64,000 bases of DNA from a virus. Taxonomy: Duplodnaviria > Caudoviricetes. The translations under genes and the position numbers were made by a program. How positions within the stretch are numbered: position 1 is the stretch's first letter; each line of letters begins with the position of its first letter. Below are positions 3 through 50,630 of this stretch, one piece after another. Location of the stretch: positions 1-64,000 of IMG/VR virus record IMGVR_UViG_3300014204_000145; one strand, written 5' to 3'. Under the pieces are notes generated by a model. That model was given only the letters and a program-made list of their open reading frames with translations. It was not told the origin of the DNA and ran no database searches.

Positions 3-3000
3 GCTCTTGCTACAAATATAAAATCAAGAAAGAAACTTTCTAAAGAAGCTGCAGAGCAAGAAGCTGATGAAATATTAAAACCTTATACTGAACTTAAACA
101 AGATGACGGACAAGGTTGGATAACACCTAAAAGATTTAGAGATATAGCTAGTGGACTTGGTATGTGGACAAGTGAACATGAGAAATTGTTTAATATCTTA
201 ATGCAAGGTCAAGAAGGAAACAACTATCCTAAATATTATGCTGACTTTAATGCTTTAGCTAAGAAATTATATTTCCCTGATGGGCAACCTTACAAAGGTC
301 AGTTCTACGATATGGTAGAAGATGGTTCTCAAATGAGACCTGTTTATTTAAAATACTCACAAGCTGTACTATGGCCAGGTTTAGTAAAAGGCTCTAAATT
401 AGAGAACTTACTTAAAAACATGGAAGCAAGTGGTGTTGATGAGATGGTAGGTACAGAAGCTATTAAAGTAGGTGCTTCAGATATACACAATTCACAAGAG
501 GTATTAGCAGGAGATTTTGCTATTAAGTCTATAGAATTACGTAATTCAGGTTGGAAATTACAAAATGATTTATCAGCTAAATATACTAAGAGTGGTAAAG
601 TAACTACAGGTTCTCAGCTAAGAAAGAACATTTTATGTAACTTAGAAGGTAAAACTTTTACTATAAATGGAGAAAAAGTAGACGGTGTTACTTTAGCTAA
701 GATGATACAAGAGGTAGATAGTAAAATATCAGATGCTACATTAGATAAATTCTCTACACAGTTTGAGAGTGAAACTAGCTACTACGATACTTTCTATGCT
801 AATTTAATAGATAAATTTAAAAAAGACGGTGTATCAACTAACATACTAGAAGCTTTAGAAGCAGGTGTTAATTTAGATACTATAATACAAGGTGGAGATA
901 CATTAGAAGCAGGAATACATTCAGCTTTAAATAAAGCTTCTGTGAGATTAAAAAATCATGGTGGAGCATTTATTCAAATGTCTAACGCAGGTTTTTCTAA
1001 ACTAGAAGGTATATCTACACCTGAGCAATTAATTAAAGATGTAAATAACATAATTTACTTAAAAGACCAATCTGAATTAAGGGGGCCAAGTATTGTAGGT
1101 GGTGTTGTTAAACCTGGTGATATCTTTTTACCTTATAAAGCTATAAAAGATATACCAAATATAAAACAAAGAATAGCAGATGGATTAACTATAGCAGAAT
1201 TAAAGACTCTTATGGGAGATACTTTAAATGTTATAGGTTATCGTATTCCTAATCAAAATATAACTTCTATTGACTCATTAGAAATAGCAGGTATCTTACC
1301 TGAATATTTAGGGGATACTGTAGTTACTTTTACAGAGATTGTAGGTAAGACAGGTTCCGATTTTGATATTGATAAGATGTATATGATGATGCCTAATGTA
1401 CAGTGGGATGCTGCACAAGGTAAACTTGTAAAGATTAATGATGATAGTATTGCAGGATTAGAAAACAAACGTATAGACTTATACAGAACTGTATTAGAAG
1501 ATGCACAAGTGTTCCCAGAGCTTATAACACCTTTAGATTCATCTTTCTTATCACATGATGCATATTATGTAGAATTTTTAAGAGAAATAGGTAAAGATAC
1601 TAAATCAGTATTAAAAGCTGTAGGTGCAAATACTTTACAAGATTTCTTAAGTAATCCTAATAAAAAAGAAATTGCTTATAACTACTTTAAAAATAAAGAG
1701 TTTAAAACTTTAGAGTTTGCAACACCTTCATATCAATTAAGAGTTAAGACTCTTAATATGGCAGGTAAAGCAGGTACAGCACAAACAGCAAATCAATTAG
1801 TACATCACCCTCTTGCTCAATTAGCTAAACTGGCTTTTGATAGAGTATTAACAGATAGAGGTATGAGTGAAGAAGGTAAATCTATTCTTTATTCTCAACT
1901 TAATAAAGACAATAACCTTATAAGTCAAGTTATATCAGCTTGGATTAATGCTTATGTGGATTGTGCTAAAGACCCTTATATAGCTCTTATTAATAATAAT
2001 ACAACCACATCGGGTGTAGTATTTATGTTAATACGTAATGGTGTAAGTCCAGAATGGGTAAATAGATTTACTTCTCAACCTATTATAGAAGAGTATGTAA
2101 AACAAACACAAAATAAAAAGAGTCGTTTCTTTCCTAAGAAAACTCAAGACTTCATGGATATTCTTGTTAACAATTCAGGAGAACTTTATGAAAAAGAAAG
2201 AAAAAACGCTTATATAACTCCTACAGCAGCAACTTTAAGTAAATACATAGAAGGTGTTGATTTTAATCTTAGTGTAAACGAAGATTTAATAGGAGATGTT
2301 AAAAACTTAGAACAACAAATAATTAAATCTGATAATCAAACACAAGTAGAAATATTAAAACAATTCTTAGTATTTCAAACTTATGCATCTAGTTTAACTG
2401 ATGCTGTTAAGACTTGTAAATATGATACTAAAGGTAGTGGAGCTTCTGCAGCAGAGAATATAGCTGCTAAAGAACTATTCAATAAAGCTTCCGAAGATAC
2501 TAAGTTAGTAAATTTTATTAATTTATTTGAAGATACTTACATGGAGACGTGTAGAAAGAACTCTTCAGAAAGAACAGAAGATTTTTATGGTAATAGATTA
2601 ATATCAGAAACACCTGCTATGCAAAAGATGTTACAAGCATTTGCTGCAGACCAAGGAATAGATTTCATGGTAAACCCTGACCTTAATCAAAAACTTATTA
2701 GAGCATACAAATCTTATGTATATTCTCAAGCAGATTTCTTACAAATTACAGATAAAGCTTTAAAAGACATGTTCTATGGAGATTACTCTATGAGTAAGAA
2801 ACTTATGAAGATTAAAAAGCTACTTCCTGATAATGTATTTATACAAGCTTTAGGATTTACTGCTGAGGTAGGTAAACCTTCTTTTATTATATTACCTTCA
2901 ACTAAAGTAAAAGACCCTACAGAAACAGAAGTATTATGGCAACAATGGGAGAAATTGCTTAATAAAGTAGATGAAGGTGCTATACAATTATATGAAGAAG

Positions 3001-3959
3001 TAGACTATTCTGTAGCAGACTTCATGATGGACTTAGTTAAGATGTCTTATTATACTTCAGGGTTTAACAAGAATCCTAACTCTTATCATGACTTAATTCC
3101 TAATACTTTCTTAAGAGGTGTTAATAACCCTTCTAAACAAAACCTTAACTCTTTTATATCAGAGAAATTAAGAGAATTACAAGAACTGAATGTTTTTGAT
3201 GATTTCTTGAACGATATGTACAGAAATGAGTATCAAGAGGATAGTATAGTATCAGGAGCTACTTTTTACAATACAGAAGACTATAGTAATCCTACAGCTC
3301 CTAAAGAACCTAATTATGACTCTTTAAGAAGAAAAGGTTTAGTATTTGATTCTGTACATGATTTAAAATACAAAGGTTTTGTAATGAGTAATGATACTTT
3401 CTACACACCTTTTGCAGCACATATAACTAAATTAGGTGATACTAGTGTTTATACTCCTAAACCTTATATAAAAACAGTAAACGGTTCTACTAAAGAAACC
3501 TCTTTATACAAATATATAGGAGAAAAAGAAGGACTACATTACTTTGAAGCAATAGAAAAATTATCTTATTATAGTAAAGGAAACAAGATATATCAATATG
3601 GTAGCATATCTTCTGTTGTAGAAGAACAAAAATTAATTGTAGGTTTTGGTAAAGAAACTAAACAAAACTTAACATTTAATAATATCTTTGGTAAACGTAA
3701 TGTTGGTATAGGTGCATTTAGAGAAATTGCTCAGGATACTTACAAAGCAGAAGATATGGATGTTACTTTTAAAATAGTACCTGTAGAGAGAAAAGGAAAG
3801 ACTTACTATCAAGGTGTAATATCTACAAGTAATATGAAAGATATAGTAACACATGCAGATTTAGGTTATAATAAAACAGATGCTTTATCTCTTATGAAAC
3901 AAGAGTTAAATGATATGTCTTATGAAAAACTAGTTTTCATTTTAAACAACAAATGTTAA
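3..3959 (+). CDS. Virion-packaged multisubunit-type RNA polymerase of crAss-like phages (5' end outside window)
   Basis: Frame is open from position 3 (…DDGQGWITPKRFRDIASGLGMW…), so the ATG at 162 is internal. Contains the catalytic DxDxD loop TGSDFDIDK preceded by RIPNQ, as in phi14:2 gp66-type enzymes. Confidence 0.9.
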   Translation, partial: ALATNIKSRKKLSKEAAEQEADEILKPYTELKQDDGQGWITPKRFRDIASGLGMWTSEHEKLFNILMQGQEGNNYPKYYADFNALAKKLYFPDGQPYKGQFYDMVEDGSQMRPVYLKYSQAVLWPGLVKGSKLENLLKNMEASGVDEMVGTEAIKVGASDIHNSQEVLAGDFAIKSIELRNSGWKLQNDLSAKYTKSGKVTTGSQLRKNILCNLEGKTFTINGEKVDGVTLAKMIQEVDSKISDATLDKFSTQFESETSYYDTFYANLIDKFKKDGVSTNILEALEAGVNLDTIIQGGDTLEAGIHSALNKASVRLKNHGGAFIQMSNAGFSKLEGISTPEQLIKDVNNIIYLKDQSELRGPSIVGGVVKPGDIFLPYKAIKDIPNIKQRIADGLTIAELKTLMGDTLNVIGYRIPNQNITSIDSLEIAGILPEYLGDTVVTFTEIVGKTGSDFDIDKMYMMMPNVQWDAAQGKLVKINDDSIAGLENKRIDLYRTVLEDAQVFPELITPLDSSFLSHDAYYVEFLREIGKDTKSVLKAVGANTLQDFLSNPNKKEIAYNYFKNKEFKTLEFATPSYQLRVKTLNMAGKAGTAQTANQLVHHPLAQLAKLAFDRVLTDRGMSEEGKSILYSQLNKDNNLISQVISAWINAYVDCAKDPYIALINNNTTTSGVVFMLIRNGVSPEWVNRFTSQPIIEEYVKQTQNKKSRFFPKKTQDFMDILVNNSGELYEKERKNAYITPTAATLSKYIEGVDFNLSVNEDLIGDVKNLEQQIIKSDNQTQVEILKQFLVFQTYASSLTDAVKTCKYDTKGSGASAAENIAAKELFNKASEDTKLVNFINLFEDTYMETCRKNSSERTEDFYGNRLISETPAMQKMLQAFAADQGIDFMVNPDLNQKLIRAYKSYVYSQADFLQITDKALKDMFYGDYSMSKKLMKIKKLLPDNVFIQALGFTAEVGKPSFIILPSTKVKDPTETEVLWQQWEKLLNKVDEGAIQLYEEVDYSVADFMMDLVKMSYYTSGFNKNPNSYHDLIPNTFLRGVNNPSKQNLNSFISEKLRELQELNVFDDFLNDMYRNEYQEDSIVSGATFYNTEDYSNPTAPKEPNYDSLRRKGLVFDSVHDLKYKGFVMSNDTFYTPFAAHITKLGDTSVYTPKPYIKTVNGSTKETSLYKYIGEKEGLHYFEAIEKLSYYSKGNKIYQYGSISSVVEEQKLIVGFGKETKQNLTFNNIFGKRNVGIGAFREIAQDTYKAEDMDVTFKIVPVERKGKTYYQGVISTSNMKDIVTHADLGYNKTDALSLMKQELNDMSYEKLVFILNNKC

Positions 3960-3960
3960 T

Positions 3961-6900
3961 ATGAATTGTCCAAATAGAAACCTACCAGAGTGGAAAGCTT
4001 TGGTAGAACAAGTAGGAAGTTTAGAAGCTATGTATCTTTATATTCAAAATGGATATGAGATACCTACACAAATGCCTCAAATGAAACCTGATAGATATGA
4101 ATGGTCTCCTGAGCTTAAGGAGAATATAGATACTTTAATTAAGATTACAGATATTAGAGAAAATATCTTAATTAACCTTAGTACTAAGCATAACATATAT
4201 AGTAAGGATAAAAAATATTCACAACAACTTGACCGTCTTATTGCAGACTTTGTAGATGCTGATATAGAAAAGAGTGTTCTTACATTCTTACAAAAAGGTA
4301 TTTCAAGTGTTGGAGCCCTAAGAAAGAAATTAGAGGAAAATACAGGAGATTTAACGTATCTTAAAATGCTTAAAGACTTTGCAGAAAGTTTTGCAATAGT
4401 AGAAGATATAGCTAAAGTTGTAGCTACTAAGAAGTATAATAAGTTTAAACGTATTTCTCCTTATGTTAAAGAGTTATTAAAAGAATTAAAAGACTTTGAG
4501 TTAGAATATAATACAACAGCTAAAAAAGCTCTTGCAGATACTTTAGCTAATGCTTCTACTATAAAAACAGCAGAACATAGAGTAAAGTATGCTATAGAAT
4601 TTGCTAGAGAAAATCCTAAGAATAAGTCTACCTTACCTGCTGATAAATATGAACAGGCTAAGAATGAATATATAGAAGATAGTCTTAATGCTAATAGAGG
4701 CAGAATATTCCAAGAAGAAAAAGATTATGTAATACAATTACTAACTACCTCTCCTAAGGATATAGGAAGCGTTGTAGCGAATGTTTCTAGTATGAGACAG
4801 ATAAATGACCATATGATTCAATTAGCTGTTAAAATGCTTGATAAAGCAGATTTTGATGCTAATAGAAAATTTAATTCTCAAAAGAGGGAAGCTATAAAAG
4901 TATGGGAGAAATTTATAAAAGCTTCTCAAGCTAAAGGTATATTGATTACAGACCAAAAGAAACTGTATGACGGTATTATAGAAAAAATAGATGGTAAAGA
5001 AACTAACTATTATGTAAGACCAATGTACTCTACTTTTTATAAAGAGTATAATGAGTTGTTAGGACAGTTATATAATTTAGAAGACGAGTTTAGTGAAGCT
5101 ACTACATTAAAAGAGAAACAAGCTATTGTAGCTAAGAAAGATGAATTAAGAAATGCTTGGAAACTAAAGCATTTTAAAACTCCTCAAGATAGTACAGGTA
5201 AATGGACTAACCTAGATAAATGGAACAAACCTGAATTCTTAAAAGATGAGTTTGTAAACCCTCAATATAAGAAATTAGAACCTGGTACTAAAGGTTATGA
5301 CAGTACTGTAGCTGATATGTATCATTACTTAATTAAGTTTAACGAAGACTCAGATAAGTTATTAACTAGAGGTAAACTAGGCTATAAGTTACCTGCACAA
5401 GATAAAACAACAGGAGAGCAACTTACAGATAATGGTATTAAAAAAGCTGTTTCAAGAGGTTGGAAAGACTCTATAAGCGTAGTATCAAGTGACTCTGAGT
5501 ATGGAGATACTGTAAAAGTTAATACAGGAGTATCAGGTGAGGTAACTAGAGGTATAGCAATACCATTTAGAAGAGACTTAGAGATAGAAAATCAATCATT
5601 TGATTTAATGGGTATGAGTCTTACTAACAGATATGTATCATTAAATTACAATGAAAAAGATAAAATAAAAGTAAACCTTGAAGTCTTAAAAGACATGTTA
5701 TACAGTAGAGATGTTGTAGAGTATTCAGGTAAAAGAAAGATATTAAAAAGCTCAGCTAATTTCTTTGGTAATGTTGGTAAAGAAATAGATGAAATAGAAA
5801 ATACTTTAAAAGGAAGTCAATCTAATTCTTATAAAGTATATAATTCTATTATAGAGGATAGATTATATGGTGTACATGATATAGCAACAGTTATAGGTAA
5901 CATATCCGTAGATAAAATATCTAAGAAATTAATAGGTTTTTCTGCTCATAATATGCTTATATTAAACTTAATGGGTGGTACAGCTAACTTACTTAATGGT
6001 AAAACTATGAACTTCTTAGAAGGAACTAGAAGACAATTTTATACAAGACAAAACTTAAGACAAGCAGAATTAAAGTATTTTGGAGATTCACATAAAATAT
6101 TAGCAGATTTAGAATCTGCAATGCCTAATAGTAAGACTAACTTACTTAGAGAACTATTTTTAGATACTTCAGTAGGTTTTAACACTATGAGCAACCCTTT
6201 AACTAATGACAGTAGATTTAAAAGAGCTGCTAATATAGGAACTTTACACCTTGTAAATAGTTCAGCAGAGCACTATATATCTAGTACACTTATGTACGCT
6301 ATATTAGACAATATTAAAATGCAGAATTCTAAAGGAGAATATATAAATCAAGAGGGTGAAGTTGTAGAAAGAGATAAAGCTATGTCTTTAGATGAAGCTT
6401 ATTCTAGAGCAGAAGATGGAAGTTTATACTTAACCATAGCTAATTCTAAAGCAGAAGGATTTGATAAAGCTGATATGGAGTCTAATATCAGAAATCGTGT
6501 TAAGAATGTTATGATGGACTTACAAGGTCAGTATGACACTACTAACCGTTCTATGATGGAAAGAGAATTTTATGGTAAGTTAATATTCTATTTACGAAAA
6601 TGGATGTTATCAGGTATTCAAAAAAGATGGATGGGTATCAGTACTGCAGGAAAACATTTTGATGGGTTAAAAACACATGAAAAATTCTACTCAGAGTCTT
6701 TACAAGAGTATAAAGAAGGTACTTACACTTCACTAGCTAGGTTTAGTAGAAGTATTTTTAAGGGTTGTAGAGCTTTAAAAGGAGAGATTATTACAGCAGA
6801 TTGGAATAGACTATCTGATATGGAAAAAGGTAACATAAGATTTGCTGTAACTGAATTAGGTATTATGCTAGGTGCTTTAATAGCTTCAGGTATTGTAGCT

Positions 6901-7314: not shown

Positions 7315-8676
7315 ATGAAAAAAATAACAACACTCTTAGGCATACTTCTTATAGTAATAAGTTGCCAATCTCAAATTTTAAATGAAAAAATAAGAGTTTC
7401 AGAAGAAACTGTTTTATCAGTACCAGACTCTCTAAGTAGAATAGGTAAAAATTTACCTAAAGGTAAACTGGTCTTAAACAGAGAAAACGGTTTAATCTTT
7501 ATGGTAAATGATTACACTTTATCTAATAAAACATTAGCTTCTTCAAATAAAACTTTAGTATCTTCTAAAGCCTCTTCATTAGGTGAAAGTATTTCACAAA
7601 GTGTATTAAGTTTTAATGCAGGAGAGTTTAATATCATATCTCCACAAATACCTACTACAAAGTATTCCTCTTTTTATCAAAACTTAGATACTTTTAATTT
7701 AAAAACAGTAGGAGCGTATCCTATGGGTGTTCAAAGAACAGCAGGTATATCATCAGAAGCAGGACTTTTATCTCTTTATTTTAACAGAACTGGGGTAGAT
7801 GCCTATATAAATTTATATGATGGGGAAATATCTGTTAAGAGTTCACATGGCATACAATATACACCCATATTATACGAAAATTTAAATACTAATTCTTTAG
7901 TTCCTAAAAGTTATGTAGATTCTGTTGCAGCAGTCTTGTTGGATTCTATAGGTTTAGACACAAGTAATTTAAAAATAGGATATGGTCTAGAGATACTTGG
8001 AGACAGTATAAACTTAAGTCAAGAAGTATTTGATTCCATAGATAATGAAATTAGTAAAATACCTGTTTATACAGGTAGTAATACTATTACTATAGTAGGA
8101 GATAGTATTAATGTTTCACAAGAAATTTATGATACCTTAAACACTAAGATACCTTCTACAGGTTATCTTAATTCTAATATTTACTTAATAGGGAAAGACA
8201 CCTTAAATAATGTAATCTTAGATACGCTAGGACAGTTTTTTACAAGAGCTGTGGACACAGCAAACAATAACTATACAGAATTATCAGTTATGGGGAGTGC
8301 TTTTGATATTAATGTAAATACAGAAGATAATACAATATCATCTTATTTAGCTATAGATACAGATACGATAGACATAGGTTCTTATGGAGCAATAAACTAT
8401 ACCTCTCTAGGACTAGATTCTTTAGATATAGTTGTAGCAGGTGTTGACAGTACTTTTAAAGGTGTGTTGTATGCTGCAGATTATTCTGCAAATTATACTA
8501 ATAGAAGTTTAGTAGATAGAGATAATGCTATGAAGTATACTGTTATTGAGACAGAAGTTCCTGCTAGTGCAACTGCAGAAGGTGTAAAAGGGGCTGTCAT
8601 TATTTCTGTTGGGTACATTTATATTTGTATAGATACAAATACTTGGGTAAGAGTGGCAATTACAACTTGGGAATAA
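7315..8676 (+). CDS. Putative lipoprotein with tail-fibre-like C-terminal motif
   Basis: N-terminal MKK + hydrophobic stretch + ISC lipobox-like; internal repeat GDSINLSQEVFDSI/GDSINVSQEIYDTL; C-terminal GYIYICIDTNTWVRVAITTW resembles a common phage fibre tip motif. Confidence 0.5.
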   Translation: MKKITTLLGILLIVISCQSQILNEKIRVSEETVLSVPDSLSRIGKNLPKGKLVLNRENGLIFMVNDYTLSNKTLASSNKTLVSSKASSLGESISQSVLSFNAGEFNIISPQIPTTKYSSFYQNLDTFNLKTVGAYPMGVQRTAGISSEAGLLSLYFNRTGVDAYINLYDGEISVKSSHGIQYTPILYENLNTNSLVPKSYVDSVAAVLLDSIGLDTSNLKIGYGLEILGDSINLSQEVFDSIDNEISKIPVYTGSNTITIVGDSINVSQEIYDTLNTKIPSTGYLNSNIYLIGKDTLNNVILDTLGQFFTRAVDTANNNYTELSVMGSAFDINVNTEDNTISSYLAIDTDTIDIGSYGAINYTSLGLDSLDIVVAGVDSTFKGVLYAADYSANYTNRSLVDRDNAMKYTVIETEVPASATAEGVKGAVIISVGYIYICIDTNTWVRVAITTWE

Positions 8677-31524: not shown

Positions 31525-32355
31525 TTAAAATAAAATATGATTTACTTTATTACATTTTAATTTTTCATTGTGTGTATCTTCGATAAAATGTAATTCAACT
31601 ATACCTGAAGCTCTATTACCTTTATTAGTTTCAAAATGAAAACCATTACGTTTACCTTGAGTTTCTTGTTTAGCTGCAATATTTTGGATATACCACTTAT
31701 TTCTTTGTTCAAGAGTATTATTTTGACATAATACTTCGTGTCTAACAGGATGGATAAAACCATCATGAGTATGTTCTGTAATCCAAATATCTGCTGATGG
31801 ATATGTAGCTTTTGAAATATCAATACCAAGAGAACCTTTACTTCTAGTTCCCATAGAAAAAGGACTGTGACAAAAATGAATTACAAGTCTTGTTCTTTTA
31901 TTTCTTAATCCTACTGGAGTATTTAAAATAATATAACCTGTATATTCATGTATAGGCACATCTACACCACAAATAAGAGCTAATAAATCTATGTTATGAT
32001 GTTTGACTATAGAATTATCATGATTACCTCTATTCCAACTAATTATTCTATCTTTATAAGGTAAGATTATATCTTTTCTACTGTCTTCTATTACTTTGTT
32101 CGCATAATCGCTGCTATTGAATTTTTCTAATGTAGCCGTTTTACTTCCTCTTTTGTCATTAACAAATTGCATAACATCAATTGAATCTCCTCCTATTACT
32201 ATATAAGCATTGGGGTTGTCATCAAGATATTTTTTTACATGTTTCCACATAGAAAACTCAGAGTCTTTATGTAAATCTGAAATCCAAACTATTGAAAAGT
32301 TCTTCTGTTCAATTTTTACTTCTAAGACTTCATCAGATAATCTTTTTGTTATCAT
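31525..32355 (-). CDS. Calcineurin-like metallophosphoesterase (likely start ATG 32355, 276 aa)
   Basis: ISDLH, GGDSID, RGNHD, HTH motifs; the 35 upstream codons of the track ORF are low-complexity AT-rich leader. Confidence 0.75.
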   Translation of the reverse strand: MITKRLSDEVLEVKIEQKNFSIVWISDLHKDSEFSMWKHVKKYLDDNPNAYIVIGGDSIDVMQFVNDKRGSKTATLEKFNSSDYANKVIEDSRKDIILPYKDRIISWNRGNHDNSIVKHHNIDLLALICGVDVPIHEYTGYIILNTPVGLRNKRTRLVIHFCHSPFSMGTRSKGSLGIDISKATYPSADIWITEHTHDGFIHPVRHEVLCQNNTLEQRNKWYIQNIAAKQETQGKRNGFHFETNKGNRASGIVELHFIEDTHNEKLKCNKVNHILF

Positions 32356-32653
32356 AATTAAAATATTAAAGGTTTTAAAAAGAGTAGTATACTCCCATAA
32401 GAATTTTATTTTCTGTAAAAGTATACTATTTCTTTTTAAAATCAAAATGTTATATGCCAAAACATATAATTTACCTTAAAATCACATTATTATATGTAAA
32501 CACATATAATGCGGACTATTTTGAACATTATGCATAGGTTTTGTGCATTATAATACACATTTTAGTATGATTTCTCATGCATTAAAGCATAAAATAACAC
32601 TTAGTGCATTATATCTCATTCATTTTTAGTTAGTTGTATTGTTTTTGTGGGTA

Positions 32654-32661
32654 CAAATATA
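32654..32661 (-). promoter_or_regulatory. -7 promoter element TATATTTG
   Basis: Exact TAnnTTTG in non-coding DNA upstream of the phosphoesterase operon. Confidence 0.5.
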
Positions 32662-32669
32662 TAACTTAG

Positions 32670-32685
32670 CAACGAGTTAGCAAAT
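32670..32685 (-). other. Truncated attC-like site C (ATTTGCTAAC-TCGTTG)
   Basis: Follows the TAG of the 83-aa gene; ATTTGCTAA is 8/9 complementary to TTAACAAAT at that cassette's start; no partner arm found. Confidence 0.45.
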
Positions 32686-32688
32686 ATA

Positions 32689-32940
32689 CTATAAGACACT
32701 TACGTCTTTGTTTTTCGCTTTTACGTGTTGTTTTATTTTCGTGAATAGTTTTGTATATGCTTTTGATGTTTGAGCATCATTTAAAATATTGTCAAACATT
32801 AATTGAACTATTGCATTTCTCGATTTTTCAAAGTCTTTTACTTTTTCTTTTGAGAAATTTAGTTTTTGGTCTTTAAGTTGTTTCCCTATTGTTGGAGCTA
32901 AACAACTAAAATGTATTCCGAATGTCTTTTTTTGTTCCAT
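32689..32940 (-). CDS. Hypothetical protein (83 aa), cassette-like gene 2
   Basis: ORF bounded by attC-like elements B and C. Confidence 0.65.
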   Translation of the reverse strand: MEQKKTFGIHFSCLAPTIGKQLKDQKLNFSKEKVKDFEKSRNAIVQLMFDNILNDAQTSKAYTKLFTKIKQHVKAKNKDVSVL

Positions 32941-32973
32941 AATATTGTATTTATTAGATTAATTACTAAGTAC

Positions 32974-33068
32974 ATTTGTTAACAATTTGTAAAAAACAAA
33001 GCTGGATAGCTCTATAAAACTTGATAAGTAACGGTTAGCTTCGTTTCTTACAAGTCAACGTTACCTGC
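32974..33068 (-). other. attC-like hairpin site B
   Basis: GCAGGTAAC-N6-TTGTAAGAAACGAAGCT…AGCTTTGTTTTTTACAA-N3-GTTAACAAAT; 17-bp stem with two G·T pairs. Confidence 0.6.
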
Positions 33069-33072
33069 AATG

Positions 33073-33351
33073 CTAATCGACAATGTAGTCGTAAATTTTA
33101 GGATTAGCACATTTACCTTCAAGTAATTCACAGCTTGTAGGCGTGATTATTGCTGTTACGTGCGGGTGTTCATTTTCACACAACCATTTTATCAAAGGTC
33201 TTGCCGCTTTCTCAAAGGGTATTAAATGGTCTTTCTCTTTGTTGTCAATCCCGTTTCCTTCATAAAATTTACAATGAGGATAACCTCTTTCTTTGCAAGA
33301 ATTCATAATTGTGCAAGTTTCTTTTTTCAAGCAATTACTGCATTTTTTCAT
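33073..33351 (-). CDS. Hypothetical Cys-rich protein (92 aa), cassette-like gene 1
   Basis: CSNC…C…C…C motif; bounded by attC-like elements A and B. Confidence 0.65.
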   Translation of the reverse strand: MKKCSNCLKKETCTIMNSCKERGYPHCKFYEGNGIDNKEKDHLIPFEKAARPLIKWLCENEHPHVTAIITPTSCELLEGKCANPKIYDYIVD

Positions 33352-33389
33352 TTTTATATTTGTTTTAAAATTAATACTAATAAAGCCAA

Positions 33390-33456
33390 GCAGGTAATAC
33401 CTTGTATGTAAAATTCCGCTACGTTACACTTTACATACAATCGTTCGTTATATTTC
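33390..33456 (-). other. attC-like hairpin site A
   Basis: GAAATATAAC-N6-TTGTATGTAAAG…TTTTACATACAA-N3-ATTACCTGC; same 6/3 spacing and TTGTA/TACAA arms as site B. Confidence 0.55.
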
Positions 33457-33462
33457 ACACCA

Positions 33463-33491
33463 CTAAGATACAAAACATTTAACAATATCAA
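33463..33491 (-). promoter_or_regulatory. Candidate promoter just upstream of the cassette-like array
   Basis: TTG-N18-TATCTTAG, a one-base variant of TAnnTTTG. Confidence 0.35.
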
Positions 33492-44042: not shown

Positions 44043-44226
44043 GCATTGTCAAATATAAAGTTTTCATTAAGTCCTCATTTAATGTTAATAGTTGTTCTAT
44101 AGACATATGAGCTACTATTTCATAGTCTTCATGTCCAAAAGAGTCATGATACTTAAATAAAGTATCCATAAGTTTAATTCTAATATCTTGTTCATTCATA
44201 TTGGTTAAATATTAATTTGTTAATAG

Positions 44227-44307
44227 AACCCTCTGCAGGACTCGAACCTACATCTCCCACATGTTGTGGTACTCTAGCCAAAGTTGTTAAACTTGAGTTA
44301 AGAGGGT
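44227..44307 (-). tRNA. tRNA-like element, D-loop insertion, anticodon arm reduced to a 3-nt loop
   Basis: ACCCTCT/AGAGGGT acceptor, ACTC/GAGT D-stem, GTAGG-TTCGAGT-CCTGC T-arm; CCACA-ACA-TGTGG anticodon arm; no encoded CCA. Confidence 0.7.
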
Positions 44308-44331
44308 AATTGTTTTTATTTTTTAGCTAAT

Positions 44332-44371
44332 AAAAAAGCTCCTTGAATGTTTTAACTTAGACAAGGAGCTT
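44332..44371 (-). terminator. Intrinsic terminator
   Basis: AAGCTCCTTG…CAAGGAGCTT 10-bp stem followed by U-tract on minus strand. Confidence 0.65.
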
Positions 44372-44535
44372 CCAACTAATATTAACCAAAACTATATTTT
44401 AATTGAGAATTTTATATTTTCTCACTTTTCTACCATAAAATAGTAAACATTTACCTTCTTTAGTAGTTTCTACAGAAGGCCTAAATATTTGTATTAATAT
44501 TAAAAATATTATTAATACAACAAATAATGCTTCCA

Positions 44536-45762: not shown

Positions 45763-45805
45763 AATTTTAAGTTTTTGATTTATTAATATTAATTTTAATT
45801 AGTTG

Positions 45806-45876
45806 AAGGGAGAATGGGACTCGAACCCACATATACAACGCCATCATTGCATATTTTACCATTAAACTACCTCCCT
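45806..45876 (-). tRNA. tRNA-like element with non-canonical (6- or 8-nt) anticodon loop
   Basis: AGGGAGG/TCTCCCT acceptor, D-loop AATGGTA, GTGGG-TTCGAGT-CCCAT T-arm; TGCAA-TGATGGCG-TTGTA. Confidence 0.7.
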
Positions 45877-45882
45877 TTATTT

Positions 45883-48952: not shown

Positions 48953-49240
48953 TTAATAAATATCTCTTCTATGAGATTTGCTTACTTTTTGCATTCTGTG
49001 TTGAGGCTTATTGTATTTATCAGAACTAAATTCTATTCTTAATTCTGTTTCTGTATCGCACCTAAATACTATTTTACCCACATCACCTTCTCTTATTACA
49101 AATCTACCAAGTTTAGAATGGTGTTGACAATAATGCTTTCCATTAATAATATGTACAGCATCTTTATCACAAGTAAATTTTTCTTTATAGCCAGAGGAAC
49201 AACCATAAGGTGTTATTATTTTACTGAATTCACATTCCAT
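48953..49240 (-). CDS. Hypothetical Cys/His-rich protein (95 aa)
   Basis: C…C…C…YCQHH motif. Confidence 0.6.
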   Translation of the reverse strand: MECEFSKIITPYGCSSGYKEKFTCDKDAVHIINGKHYCQHHSKLGRFVIREGDVGKIVFRCDTETELRIEFSSDKYNKPQHRMQKVSKSHRRDIY

Positions 49241-49348
49241 ATTATTAGTAATTTAATTGATTAATAATAAAATAATTAATAATCTGACTCAACATATGAT
49301 AATGTTGTTACCAGATAGTACCCTTTGACAATTAGTGGGTTAGTATTA

Positions 49349-49493
49349 ATTATTATAAGAAAATAATAAACAGTAATCTTTACCTTTTAGAAAGGGATAG
49401 TCGAGGCCTCGTTTTGAATAAGTATACACTTAAACTTCGAAATTTAGTCGGCTTCTCCAAGAGCTATACTTTACTGTTTATTATTATAAGAAA
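49349..49493. repeat. Second unit with 15-bp inverted repeats and 14-bp flanking direct repeats
   Basis: IR AATAATAAACAGTAA 49362-49376 / 49471-49485; DR ATTATTATAAGAAA 49349-49362 / 49480-49493. Confidence 0.55.
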
Positions 49494-49607
49494 GTAACAA
49501 GTAAGGATATTTTTTTACAGTCTTCCCGAGTAACTGTTTTACATTGGCGGTTAACTCCAAAAACTAACCTTATCAGTGAAAGTACTCACTTGTCACTATA
49601 TTTTAAA

Positions 49608-49702
49608 AATGGTGGTAATAGCTTCAGCACTTCTGCTCTGAACCCTTTTAAGTTTAAAGTGCAGTTCGGGATACTGCATTACAGTTTTTCATTACCACCA
49701 TT
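49608..49702. ncRNA. Candidate structured RNA closed by a 12-bp perfect stem
   Basis: AATGGTGGTAAT / ATTACCACCATT enclosing an internal TGCAGT…ACTGCA hairpin. Confidence 0.45.
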
Positions 49703-49883
49703 ATTGATAAGTACATGTTTGTTTATAAATTCTTCGCATTAATATCTTGCGTGAATAACCAGGAATTGACTTTTGGTAGACTTCCTGAACTTTCTTCTAC
49801 CTACATGGACTATATTTTAAAGGAGCTACTCAACGGAACTTTATACTTATCATAATTCTTATCGCTGTGTTATCTTCACTCCT

Positions 49884-50630
49884 TTATTTCTTTCTATTAT
49901 TTTCAAACCAAGTGTTAAATCTTTTTAACCATTCTGCTTCATTCTCTTCATCATCATTACAAGGTTCATAATAAGTTTCAGGATAAGTTATATCTTTACA
50001 ACATTGCAATAACATCTTTCTAACTTCATCTTCGGTATAAGTAATTTGTTTTTGAGTTATAATAATACCCCTATCTTTAACTAATAAATCTTGTTCTACA
50101 ATTGTTACAAATCCGTTTGTTAGTTTAATTTTACCAACATTATGGTGTTGTAATCCTTTACCACCAATTTGCCCTGTTGGTATAAATCCACCACTAATAA
50201 CAGTTGTATGTTCTCTAGCAACTTCAACATCCTCAAACTTACCACTTGCATTATATTGTTCAATTGCTTTTTGAATATCTTCTGGGGATATTTGGTCTTG
50301 AGTTGCTATGATTTTTTTGAACCTGTTAATGCCTTGAATAGTGTGTACCTTACCATCTATAGGGTTTAAAAATGTTATAGCATCATCGTGAATTTTTTCA
50401 ACAATTATGATATTATTACCAAAATAAAGTTTATCTGCAACTTCAATCTTTTCTTCTGGGGCAAGAGATACGAGTATCAATTCCATTGCTATAGTAGGAG
50501 TCTTGATGTTGGAGTCATAATAACCTATTTTACCGTTTGACACTATAGAGTGTTTTAATATACAAGGATAAGCTCTATCCTCATTATCTTTTGTCTCAAC
50601 CAATATAGGTCTTACTTTAATTGTTTTCAT
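49884..50630 (-). CDS. Bacteroidota-phage hypothetical protein (248 aa)
   Basis: KIIATQD and YTEDEV motifs; ORF in string. Confidence 0.65.
   Translation of the reverse strand: MKTIKVRPILVETKDNEDRAYPCILKHSIVSNGKIGYYDSNIKTPTIAMELILVSLAPEEKIEVADKLYFGNNIIIVEKIHDDAITFLNPIDGKVHTIQGINRFKKIIATQDQISPEDIQKAIEQYNASGKFEDVEVAREHTTVISGGFIPTGQIGGKGLQHHNVGKIKLTNGFVTIVEQDLLVKDRGIIITQKQITYTEDEVRKMLLQCCKDITYPETYYEPCNDDEENEAEWLKRFNTWFENNRKK

Follow-up and report, generated by a model that had tools for sequence, protein, structure and literature searches.

A 64,000-nucleotide stretch of DNA (the window), comprising the first 64 kb of the virus record IMGVR_UViG_3300014204_000145, contains two small minus-strand genes of unknown function (gene 1 and gene 2), which are accompanied by two TAAC/GTTA hairpin sites (sites A and B) and bracketed by complementary ends. 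This region probably represents two units of an integron-like gene-cassette system found in Bacteroidota and their phages, in an array that has no recombinase of its own (an orphan array). The evidence comes from a covariance model of related sites built without the window sequence, from gene modules carried with compensated ends by unrelated phages, from the association of such sites in Bacteroidota chromosomes with one recombinase clade, and from the strand on which the sites fold. A preliminary description of the region, made from the window sequence alone, had proposed gene capture through an integron-like tyrosine recombinase system with a distinct attC class; the site class is retained below, as is a recombinase link, found in chromosomes, but not the cassette limits, the strand or the promoter that it had assigned.

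Sites, unit ends and the covariance model

The window belongs to the complete 90,833-bp genome of a lytic phage, with direct terminal repeats (GC content 31%, CheckV completeness 100%), and the cassette region sits inside a long block of small minus-strand genes. All cassette coordinates in the window were checked on the minus strand, on which both sites share the form TAAC-N6-stem-loop-stem-N3-(A/G)TTA. The features are listed below, where L008, L009 and L078 are contigs of other phages.

33395 to 33450, minus strand: site A, comprising TAAC (33450-33447), GAACGA, TTGTATGTAAA (33440-33430), a 17-nucleotide loop, TTTACATACAA (33412-33402), GGT and ATTA (33398-33395)
33390 to 33397, minus strand: left arm of unit 1, TTACCTGC, where homology to the L008 copy of gene 1 begins
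33073 to 33351, minus strand: gene 1, 92 amino acids, with a Cys-rich N-terminal half and a conserved C-terminal domain of about 47 amino acids; function unknown
33060 to 33068, minus strand: right arm of unit 1, GCAGGTAAC; homology to the L078 copy stops 3 nucleotides beyond its TAAC
32980 to 33063, minus strand: site B, comprising TAAC (33063-33060), GTTGAC, a 17-nucleotide arm (33053-33037), a 33-nucleotide loop, the returning arm (33003-32987), ATT and GTTA (32983-32980)
32974 to 32982, minus strand: left arm of unit 2, TTAACAAAT
32689 to 32940, minus strand: gene 2, 83 amino acids, without a family match; function unknown
32676 to 32685, minus strand: right arm of unit 2, ATTTGCTAAC; L009 homology stops exactly at its TAAC

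The shared 6/3 spacing of the two sites (GAACGA/GGT and GTTGAC/ATT) is as first described. That description had placed an AAC-N6-stem-loop-stem-N3-(G/A)TTA element after each small gene; elements A and B are present, but A precedes gene 1, and no canonical hairpin follows gene 2. The third site drawn there (site C) was rejected, as only 5-bp stems follow the gene 2 TAAC. Site A has a perfect 11-bp stem and is a 56-nucleotide short form of the family site, which at full length spans ~125 nucleotides from TAAC to GTTA. It ends in A|TTA and not G|TTA, and its loop retains CGTAGCGGAAT, the upper-stem 5' arm of the L008 homologue. Site B is an 84-nucleotide form that is also found in chromosomal arrays; its 17-bp stem has arms that are 88% complementary, the two mismatches being G·T pairs at stem positions 7 and 12. 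The ends of unit 1, TTACCTGC (33397-33390) and GCAGGTAA (33068-33061), are complementary at 8/8 positions, and those of unit 2, TTAACAAAT (32982-32974) and ATTTGCTAA(C) (32685-32676), at 8/9, in agreement with the cassette-specific end complementarity reported initially. In the window copy, the extension of the bracket beyond its core is lost. The paired arms and folded junctions in the window are a confirmed observation.

The stems of A and B are AT-rich with no T-run after them, unlike the real terminators of this phage (GC-rich stems followed by T-runs), and Rfam 15 has no family match in the window region or in L008, L078, L009 or a further contig, L074. The Bacteroidota -7 box TAnnTTTG is absent between 33450 and 33520, upstream of site A, leaving the proposed promoter resembling the integron promoter Pc unsupported.

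Within the window genome, simple pattern counts do not exceed chance. The generic motif AAC-N6-stem(at least 5 bp)-N3-RTT occurs 30 times, compared with 30.7 in shuffled sequences, with only A and B standing out; TTA+N5 brackets number 355 against 371 expected; and an 8-bp bracket falls at the 95th percentile of mismatched flank pairs. Since a bracket of 8 bp is, by itself, no more than expected in a genome so rich in AT, its significance rests on relatives and family context. A covariance model (R1) was constructed from 11 full-length sites in other contigs, with the window sequence excluded. RNAalifold gives 16 pairs for the alignment of these sites; compensatory changes affect 12 of the pairs, and two G·U pairs are kept in 10/11 and 9/11 sites. 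Run with filters off on a 1.5-kb stretch, R1 matches site B with 45.3 bits (E-value 1e-7) and site A with 32.2 bits (E-value 3e-5), both globally and on the minus strand only; the plus strand gives 7.9 bits and the next best match in the stretch 12.4 bits, and the model has no match at the supposed site C. With default filters across the whole window, R1 recovered neither A nor B. The two G·T pairs of site B occupy the two conserved wobble positions of the family, while site A is Watson-Crick at position 7. Sites A and B are thus assigned, on the evidence of the model, to a Bacteroidota TAAC/GTTA cassette-site family.

These results bear on the simplest alternative, in which the hairpins are chance structures or ordinary terminators in an AT-rich early region and the end complementarity is coincidental. 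The window-only counts given above agree with it. However, the independent model matches both sites and nothing else in the 1.5-kb stretch, 12/16 stem pairs covary, and, as described below, the arms are compensated in L008 and half of the cognate pairs in relatives are perfect. This alternative is already contradicted by the covarying stems, cognate ends and R1 matches, and we give it almost no credence.

Moved modules and covarying ends in other phages

The unit ends were compared in five other phage contigs (L008, L009, L078, L082 and G001). The variable ends are fully complementary (5/5) in 11/22 consecutive site pairs, compared with 1.9% of non-cognate pairs, and complementary at 4/5 or more positions in 14/22, compared with 9%; most of the misses have an intervening hairpin-less TAAC. 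GTTA+N4 brackets are likewise in excess, with 9 observed against 0.65 expected in L008, 3 against 0.2 in L009, and 3 against 0.35 in L078. Outside a 9-bp core, the arms have a conserved step of T·T and G·T (...C-TGG on the left, CTT-G... on the right), after which another 4-8 pairs form.

L008, a 3.1-kb Logan contig, carries a 95%-identical gene 1 homologue and has nothing else in common with the window. Its positions 2791-3118 match window positions 33391-33067 with 91.5% DNA identity, beginning at the TTA of the left arm. Its ends, G|TTATACGC ... GCGTATAAC, have three consecutive bases altered on both sides with pairing preserved, so that the gene 1 ends are compensated between the two copies (TTACCTGC/GCAGGTAA in the window, TTATACGC/GCGTATAA in L008). 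L009 carries the 3' half of gene 2 (1393-1543, 98% identical to window 32825-32676), with the match stopping exactly at TAAC. In L078, the window's arms (GTTACCTGC/GCAGGTAAC) enclose a gene with an unrelated N-terminal half, the match to the window ends 3 nucleotides past TAAC, and a methyltransferase gene lies in its own bracket. L082 contains a cassette block of 31-38% GC within surroundings of about 42-51% GC, in which three genes, one for a ParB-like protein and two for methyltransferases, are bracketed; the first hairpin of the block has 90% identity to an L078 hairpin that separates different genes. G001 is a complete 56.7-kb phage with at least 13 sites in two clusters and no duplicated cassettes in self-comparison. 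It encodes no tyrosine recombinase, and its gene 1 homologue is the sole protein that it has in common with the window phage, which rules out a phage-encoded enzyme common to both.

Taken as sequence comparisons, these cases show gene modules to have been exchanged between unrelated phages and unit ends to covary. The preliminary description had drawn cassette 1 as 32983-33397, with hairpin B carried behind gene 1; the segment shared with other contexts instead extends from the TTA at 33397 to the TAAC at 33060, leaving out the two hairpins, which are exchanged separately from the TTA-TAAC module. Viral scans with two L008 proteins returned no relatives, and a pattern scan for the gamma hairpin returned one true match (L082) and three chance matches.

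Inverted repeats around single genes are also what would be expected of invertible segments (invertons or shufflons), or of small mobile elements bounded by terminal inverted repeats, such as the mycobacteriophage mobile elements (MPMEs), in which recombination keeps the ends alike. Each unit does have 8-19-bp inverted terminal repeats, and the arms change together between gene 1 copies. However, no inverted copy of a unit was found, and within each phage array all genes point the same way. The constant part of the arms is limited to a 4-nucleotide core plus CTGG/CTTG, and the remainder varies among units in a way that a transposase or invertase site would not tolerate; the window phage encodes no transposase or invertase; and the hairpin sites between units are left without explanation. 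We regard this alternative as very improbable.

Several further observations concern gene 1 and its relatives. Gene 1 has only a sub-threshold Zn_Tnp_IS91 match and belongs to phrog_16206 (unknown function). Its C-terminal ~47 residues (FExAARPLIKWLCENxHPHVTAIITPTSCELLEGKC...) form a domain present at 64 metagenome loci (window 33073-33351 and loci L010-L073), either joined to many different N-terminal partners or alone as a 55-61-amino-acid protein; several of the loci lie on human-gut contigs of 100-310 kb, and distant copies lack brackets. At L074:200-515, a homologue (74% amino acid identity) lies inside a perfect 19-nucleotide inverted repeat abutting the open reading frame (ORF), AATTAAAAAGCAAAAATTA|TGG ... 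GAT|TAATTTTTGCTTTTTAATT. Weaker inverted repeats (13/15 and 12/12) occur at the same place around the homologues in L001 and L002, without the TAAC/GTTA core. The G001 homologue lies between two 89%-identical copies of an ~89-nucleotide element (L002:5850-5930 and 6350-6420; G001 at about 47.4 and 47.9 kb), in which CGCCAAAG/CTTTGGCG forms the inner and ATTATAA/TTATAAT the outer stem, and which is distinct from the TAAC/GTTA sites of G001. Brackets thus seem to surround gene 1 in all of its contexts, with sequences that differ. In L082, positions 7778-7815 contain GTTATTATGCGTAAC and GTTTTCATAAC after the TAAC of cassette III. The former repeats the left arm of cassette II (GTTATGCGTA at 6575) and can pair with the right arm of cassette II across a hairpin and cassette III, and the latter pairs with GTTATGAAA, located at 6614, an arrangement that may have been left when a unit was inserted into a site that had been complete.

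Exact-protein look-ups for window proteins returned only the window's own sequence, and the phage collection contains no close relatives for a presence/absence comparison, only ~80-bp matches to Vibrio phages. The metallophosphatase relatives L004-L006 are no more than 66-70% identical and have a shuffled gene order. Unit 2 is separated from the metallophosphatase gene by a 320-nucleotide non-coding stretch (32356-32675, minus strand), in which a 35-nucleotide sequence is directly repeated with 83% identity (32436-32470 and 32476-32510) and words containing ATGCA recur. A 9-bp stem nested within an 11-bp stem (32373-32441) lies immediately ahead of the ATG at 32355. Two TATATTTG boxes (32688-32681 and 32661-32654) were noted with this stretch, which is possibly the promoter/operator region of the downstream operon. 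Elsewhere in the window (44200-44400, 45763-45882 and 49200-49900), intergenic folds look tRNA-like, and a head-to-tail row of stem-closed units has ATAAGAA-type spacers; because the junction words are not TAAC/GTTA, this is a different system from the cassettes.

Chromosomal arrays, the linked recombinase and the folded strand

A covariance-model search of Bacteroidota and a search for host tyrosine recombinases beside such arrays had been suggested in the preliminary description, and both were productive. R1 matches 52/151 evenly sampled Bacteroidota genomes and 0/106 others (0/101 genomes in the phylum of a Lachnospiraceae genome, and 0/5 others). A genome-wide 18-mer scan of bacterial genomes gave 18 matches against ~17 expected by chance, none of them in site context; five Bacteroidota metagenome-assembled genomes (MAGs) came from these chance matches, and R1 matched in 2/5. 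In the Chryseolinea MAG G006, contig C26 has, from 151 to 188 kb, ~55 units of one gene each, with 23 GTTA+5/TAAC brackets, and a gene for a 423-amino-acid tyrosine recombinase ends ~500 bp past the last site match. This protein contains Phage_integrase and SAM_4 domains but falls under every curated cut-off. On the integron integrase model TIGR02249, it scores 192 bits against a cut-off of 265, with a match split into two pieces that leaves out model positions ~180-238, and it carries ~150 additional amino acids at the N-terminal end. Its best homologues (42-52% identity, E-values 1e-66 to 1e-86) lie 1.3-16.5 kb from R1 clusters in 5/5 further genomes and are far ahead of the other recombinases in each of the five; in G053 and G077 the recombinase is divergent from the array. 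In G009 (contig C17), two frames of 197 amino acids (L163:2167-2760) and 130 amino acids (L162:3023-3415), located 1.7 and 1.9 kb from sites, retain the SAM-like N-terminus and the C-terminal catalytic end without the middle, and look like decayed copies of the array recombinase. Thus one Xer/IntI-like tyrosine recombinase clade is found near site arrays in 6/6 genomes examined, and by this proximity the site family is linked to that clade in chromosomes.

The window phage has no such gene. As the preliminary description had noted for the window, no integrase is visible: the complete 90.8-kb genome encodes no tyrosine or serine recombinase and has no PF00589 match, which makes the window array an orphan mini-array.

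A second possible explanation of the phage arrays is that the hairpins and gene-closing stems act as punctuation in early polycistronic mRNA, in the presentation of translation starts, coupling, stability or processing, and that the modules are swapped by homologous or relaxed recombination at the junctions, as in the T4 stem-loops discussed below (PMC2839356, PMC4122927), with no site-specific recombinase. Several features of the phage arrays accord with it. In about half of phage sites, the loop holds the ATG of the next gene, which makes it more likely that the hairpin leads its gene than that it follows one. In L008, L009, L082 and G001, loops of up to 281 nucleotides hold this ATG plus the first 12-51 codons; in the ATG-holding sites, the 3' arm encodes a recurring peptide, ...C-T-I/L-H-S/D-V, the junction GTT being an in-phase Val codon in 11/11, and L008 (790-837) and L009 (65-111) have one and the same leader ahead of unrelated gene bodies. 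The perfect repeat in L074 abuts start and stop codons, predicted RNA folds recover hairpin A, the gene-closing stem and hairpin B, and the array-carrying phages encode no recombinase.

The deciding test is a strand-neutral tally of the non-Watson-Crick stem pairs, since a folded-strand recombination site predicts the outcome and an mRNA element does not. In the phage arrays there are 15 G·T and 0 A·C on the sense strand, so that all wobble pairs there would be G·U in mRNA, in line with RNA punctuation. In G006, the site strand has 14 G·T and 1 A·C, whereas essentially all ORFs are on the other strand, and G053 and G077 have the same arrangement, with sites antisense to nearly all genes; mRNA from these arrays would have A·C mismatches. 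Because the G·T strand is antisense to genes in chromosomes and sense in phages, the fold belongs to one DNA strand and is a DNA structure, not an mRNA structure. The linkage of site clusters to one recombinase clade also argues against RNA punctuation, as does the consideration that cleavage of RNA at the junction would cut those ORFs that begin in the loop, and the AT-rich stems of A and B, without a T-run, are unlike the real terminators of the phage. We consider RNA punctuation unlikely as the explanation of the arrays.

Known systems and the proposed recombination

The sites share several features with classical integrons and with clusters of attC sites lacking integron integrases (CALINs): single-gene units lie between imperfect palindromic sites with an AAC...GTT core, the outer (R-box) bases are particular to each unit and divided over its two ends, the stems are strand-specific with unpaired bases, and chromosomal arrays of dozens of units lie beside an Xer/IntI-lineage tyrosine recombinase, divergent from the array in G053 and G077. 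CALINs also provide examples of orphan arrays without an enzyme. There are also differences. The chromosomal partner is below the TIGR02249 cut-off (192 vs 265 bits) with the middle of the model unmatched, and no IntI lies beside the array in the window phage. The core TAAC...(G/A)TTA is kept, but the arms are not the RYYY/RRRY of the classical attC consensus RYYYAAC...GTTRRRY, a departure correctly recognized at the outset; instead, there are 9-19-bp outer arms with a fixed T·T/G·T step, in a full site of ~125 nucleotides. Classical integrons fold the bottom strand, antisense to genes, as do G006, G053 and G077 but not the window or any of the phage arrays, and the phage hairpin often carries the start codon of the next gene. 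With regard to distribution, the IntegronFinder 2.0 study found only In0 elements and one complete integron (in Salinibacter) in Bacteroidetes, from which integrons were reported to be nearly absent (PMC9024848), in contrast to the presence of the present site family in about a third of the sampled genomes.

CALINs have been reported in phages, including the Polaribacter phage P12002L with two methyltransferase cassettes, in a study by Qi et al. (2023, PMC9892861), which described two ordinary attC sites by HattCI/Infernal. P12002L carries the same family: its attC1 primer reads TAAC-GGCTAC-GGCTAAACGG...CCGTTTTAGCC-ATT-GTTA (PMC9892861), the site lies between DNA methyltransferase genes with pairing ends (GTTAGGCAC/GTGCCTAAC), and the phage is, like the window phage, a Bacteroidota phage without an integrase, and is virulent. 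Further TAAC/GTTA sites and brackets were found in its genome. The study makes no mention of covarying long arms, a Bacteroidota-wide distribution or a linked Xer-like recombinase (PMC9892861). To these published observations, the present analysis adds the window-blind model, the control phylum, the strand-neutral tally, the 6/6 recombinase linkage, and the movement of gene 1 between unrelated phages with compensated ends.

With respect to the shuffling of modules, the closest functional counterpart is the promoter early stem-loop (PeSL) of T4-type phages (Arbiol 2010, Comeau 2014; PMC2839356, PMC4122927), a short conserved stem-loop between small non-essential early genes, bounding modules that are swapped among phages. 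PeSLs consist of a sigma-70 promoter plus terminator and are exchanged via homologous recombination (PMC2839356, PMC4122927). They differ from the present sites in lacking unit-specific complementary ends, the TAAC/GTTA core and a linked recombinase, and the promoter-terminator arrangement is absent at A and B, which have no T-run and no upstream -7 box (no sigma-70 scan was made).

In the proposed mechanism, each junction is a strand-specific folded-DNA site. X'-TAAC is followed by a spacer of 4-6 nucleotides and then by a stem that has G·T pairs at fixed positions and often a bulged T; beyond the variable loop, the second strand of the stem leads through a spacer of 2-3 nucleotides to GTTA-X. 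The bases outside GTTA pair with those outside the next TAAC, spanning the gene, and this complementarity implies that a circularized unit would rebuild a complete site. In the closed unit, X'-TAAC/GTTA-X would pair into a 9-19-bp arm, followed by the unpaired spacers (4-6 and 2-3 nucleotides) and a lower hairpin stem of ~10 bp. Two duplex arms of ~10 bp around an unpaired center would have the layout of an Xer/IntI-type substrate, as for IntI on attC. XerCD acts in this way on folded CTX-phi DNA with two duplex arms about an unpaired center: a hairpin in one strand forms the two recombinase-binding arms, and the enzyme is of the host Xer type, not phage-encoded. In that system, the whole phage genome integrates at dif, without arrays, cassettes or unit-specific arms; the one-strand hairpin with two arms and the absence of the enzyme from the phage are the points of similarity to the window.

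We infer that a recombinase acts on these sites, and that its substrate would be single-stranded. Circular intermediates, and the integration at G^TT put forward in the preliminary description, are likewise hypothetical. If the folded strand behaves like the attC bottom strand, its cleavage would be expected at TAA|C, placing the window units at 33447-33061 and 33060-32677; these two units may still be mobile. The chromosomal geometry is integron-like, with genes antisense to the folded strand, and the phage geometry is its mirror image, the site probably leading the gene and often supplying its start codon. The units of the window phage may have been imported as a block, or may be moved by a host enzyme during infection.

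Several observations weigh against an integron-like system. The genes are sense to the folded strand in phages and antisense in the three chromosomal arrays examined, and this opposite polarity means that host and phage units are not simply interchangeable. With the next ATG placed in about half of the phage loops, an RNA or translation role may exist in addition to the DNA role. Homology breaks at both sides of the hairpin (G|TTA and TAAC|), which is a poor fit to a single cross-over point, and identical arms recur with different cargo (GTTACCTGC, GTTAGCGGT). Comparison with an 88% relative, L084, indicates that the L082 block took the place of an unrelated gene at an ordinary gene boundary and not at a canonical junction, so that this pair provides no clean empty site; among the sequences compared, there is also no circle junction, excision product or precise presence/absence polymorphism, nor an empty site elsewhere. 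There is no linked recombinase in the window phage (tyrosine or serine) or in G001 (tyrosine), and the window sites are atypical (A|TTA, the truncated site A, no hairpin after gene 2, and the lost bracket extension). Finally, the canonical P12002L site gave no verified IntI1 recombinant, while a neighboring site, annotated in the opposite orientation, recombined (PMC9892861).

A broader proposition, to which we give even odds, is that Bacteroidota and their phages share a widespread integron variant hardly visible to standard tools, with ~125-nucleotide TAAC/GTTA folded-strand sites, long unit-specific arms, and a short Xer-like recombinase in place of IntI. Lytic phages would keep a mirror-image version, in which the site leads the gene and often gives it its start codon and first residues, and accessory and anti-defense genes (methyltransferases, ParB-like and Lar-like) would be shuffled among unrelated phages by the host enzyme during infection.

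For the window, the cassette interpretation would explain two anonymous genes as imported modules in a small, partly decayed array. More generally, integrons have been considered a device of bacteria, and one that Bacteroidetes almost entirely lack (PMC9024848), whereas a phage-derived model here matches a third of sampled Bacteroidota genomes, with arrays that adjoin their own recombinase clade and the same units also present in unrelated lytic phages. Should the recombinase act on these sites, they would constitute a major path for genes passing between Bacteroidota and their viruses, would explain the swapping of anti-restriction genes among phages, and would provide a second, independently evolved folded-strand cassette recombination to set beside IntI/attC.

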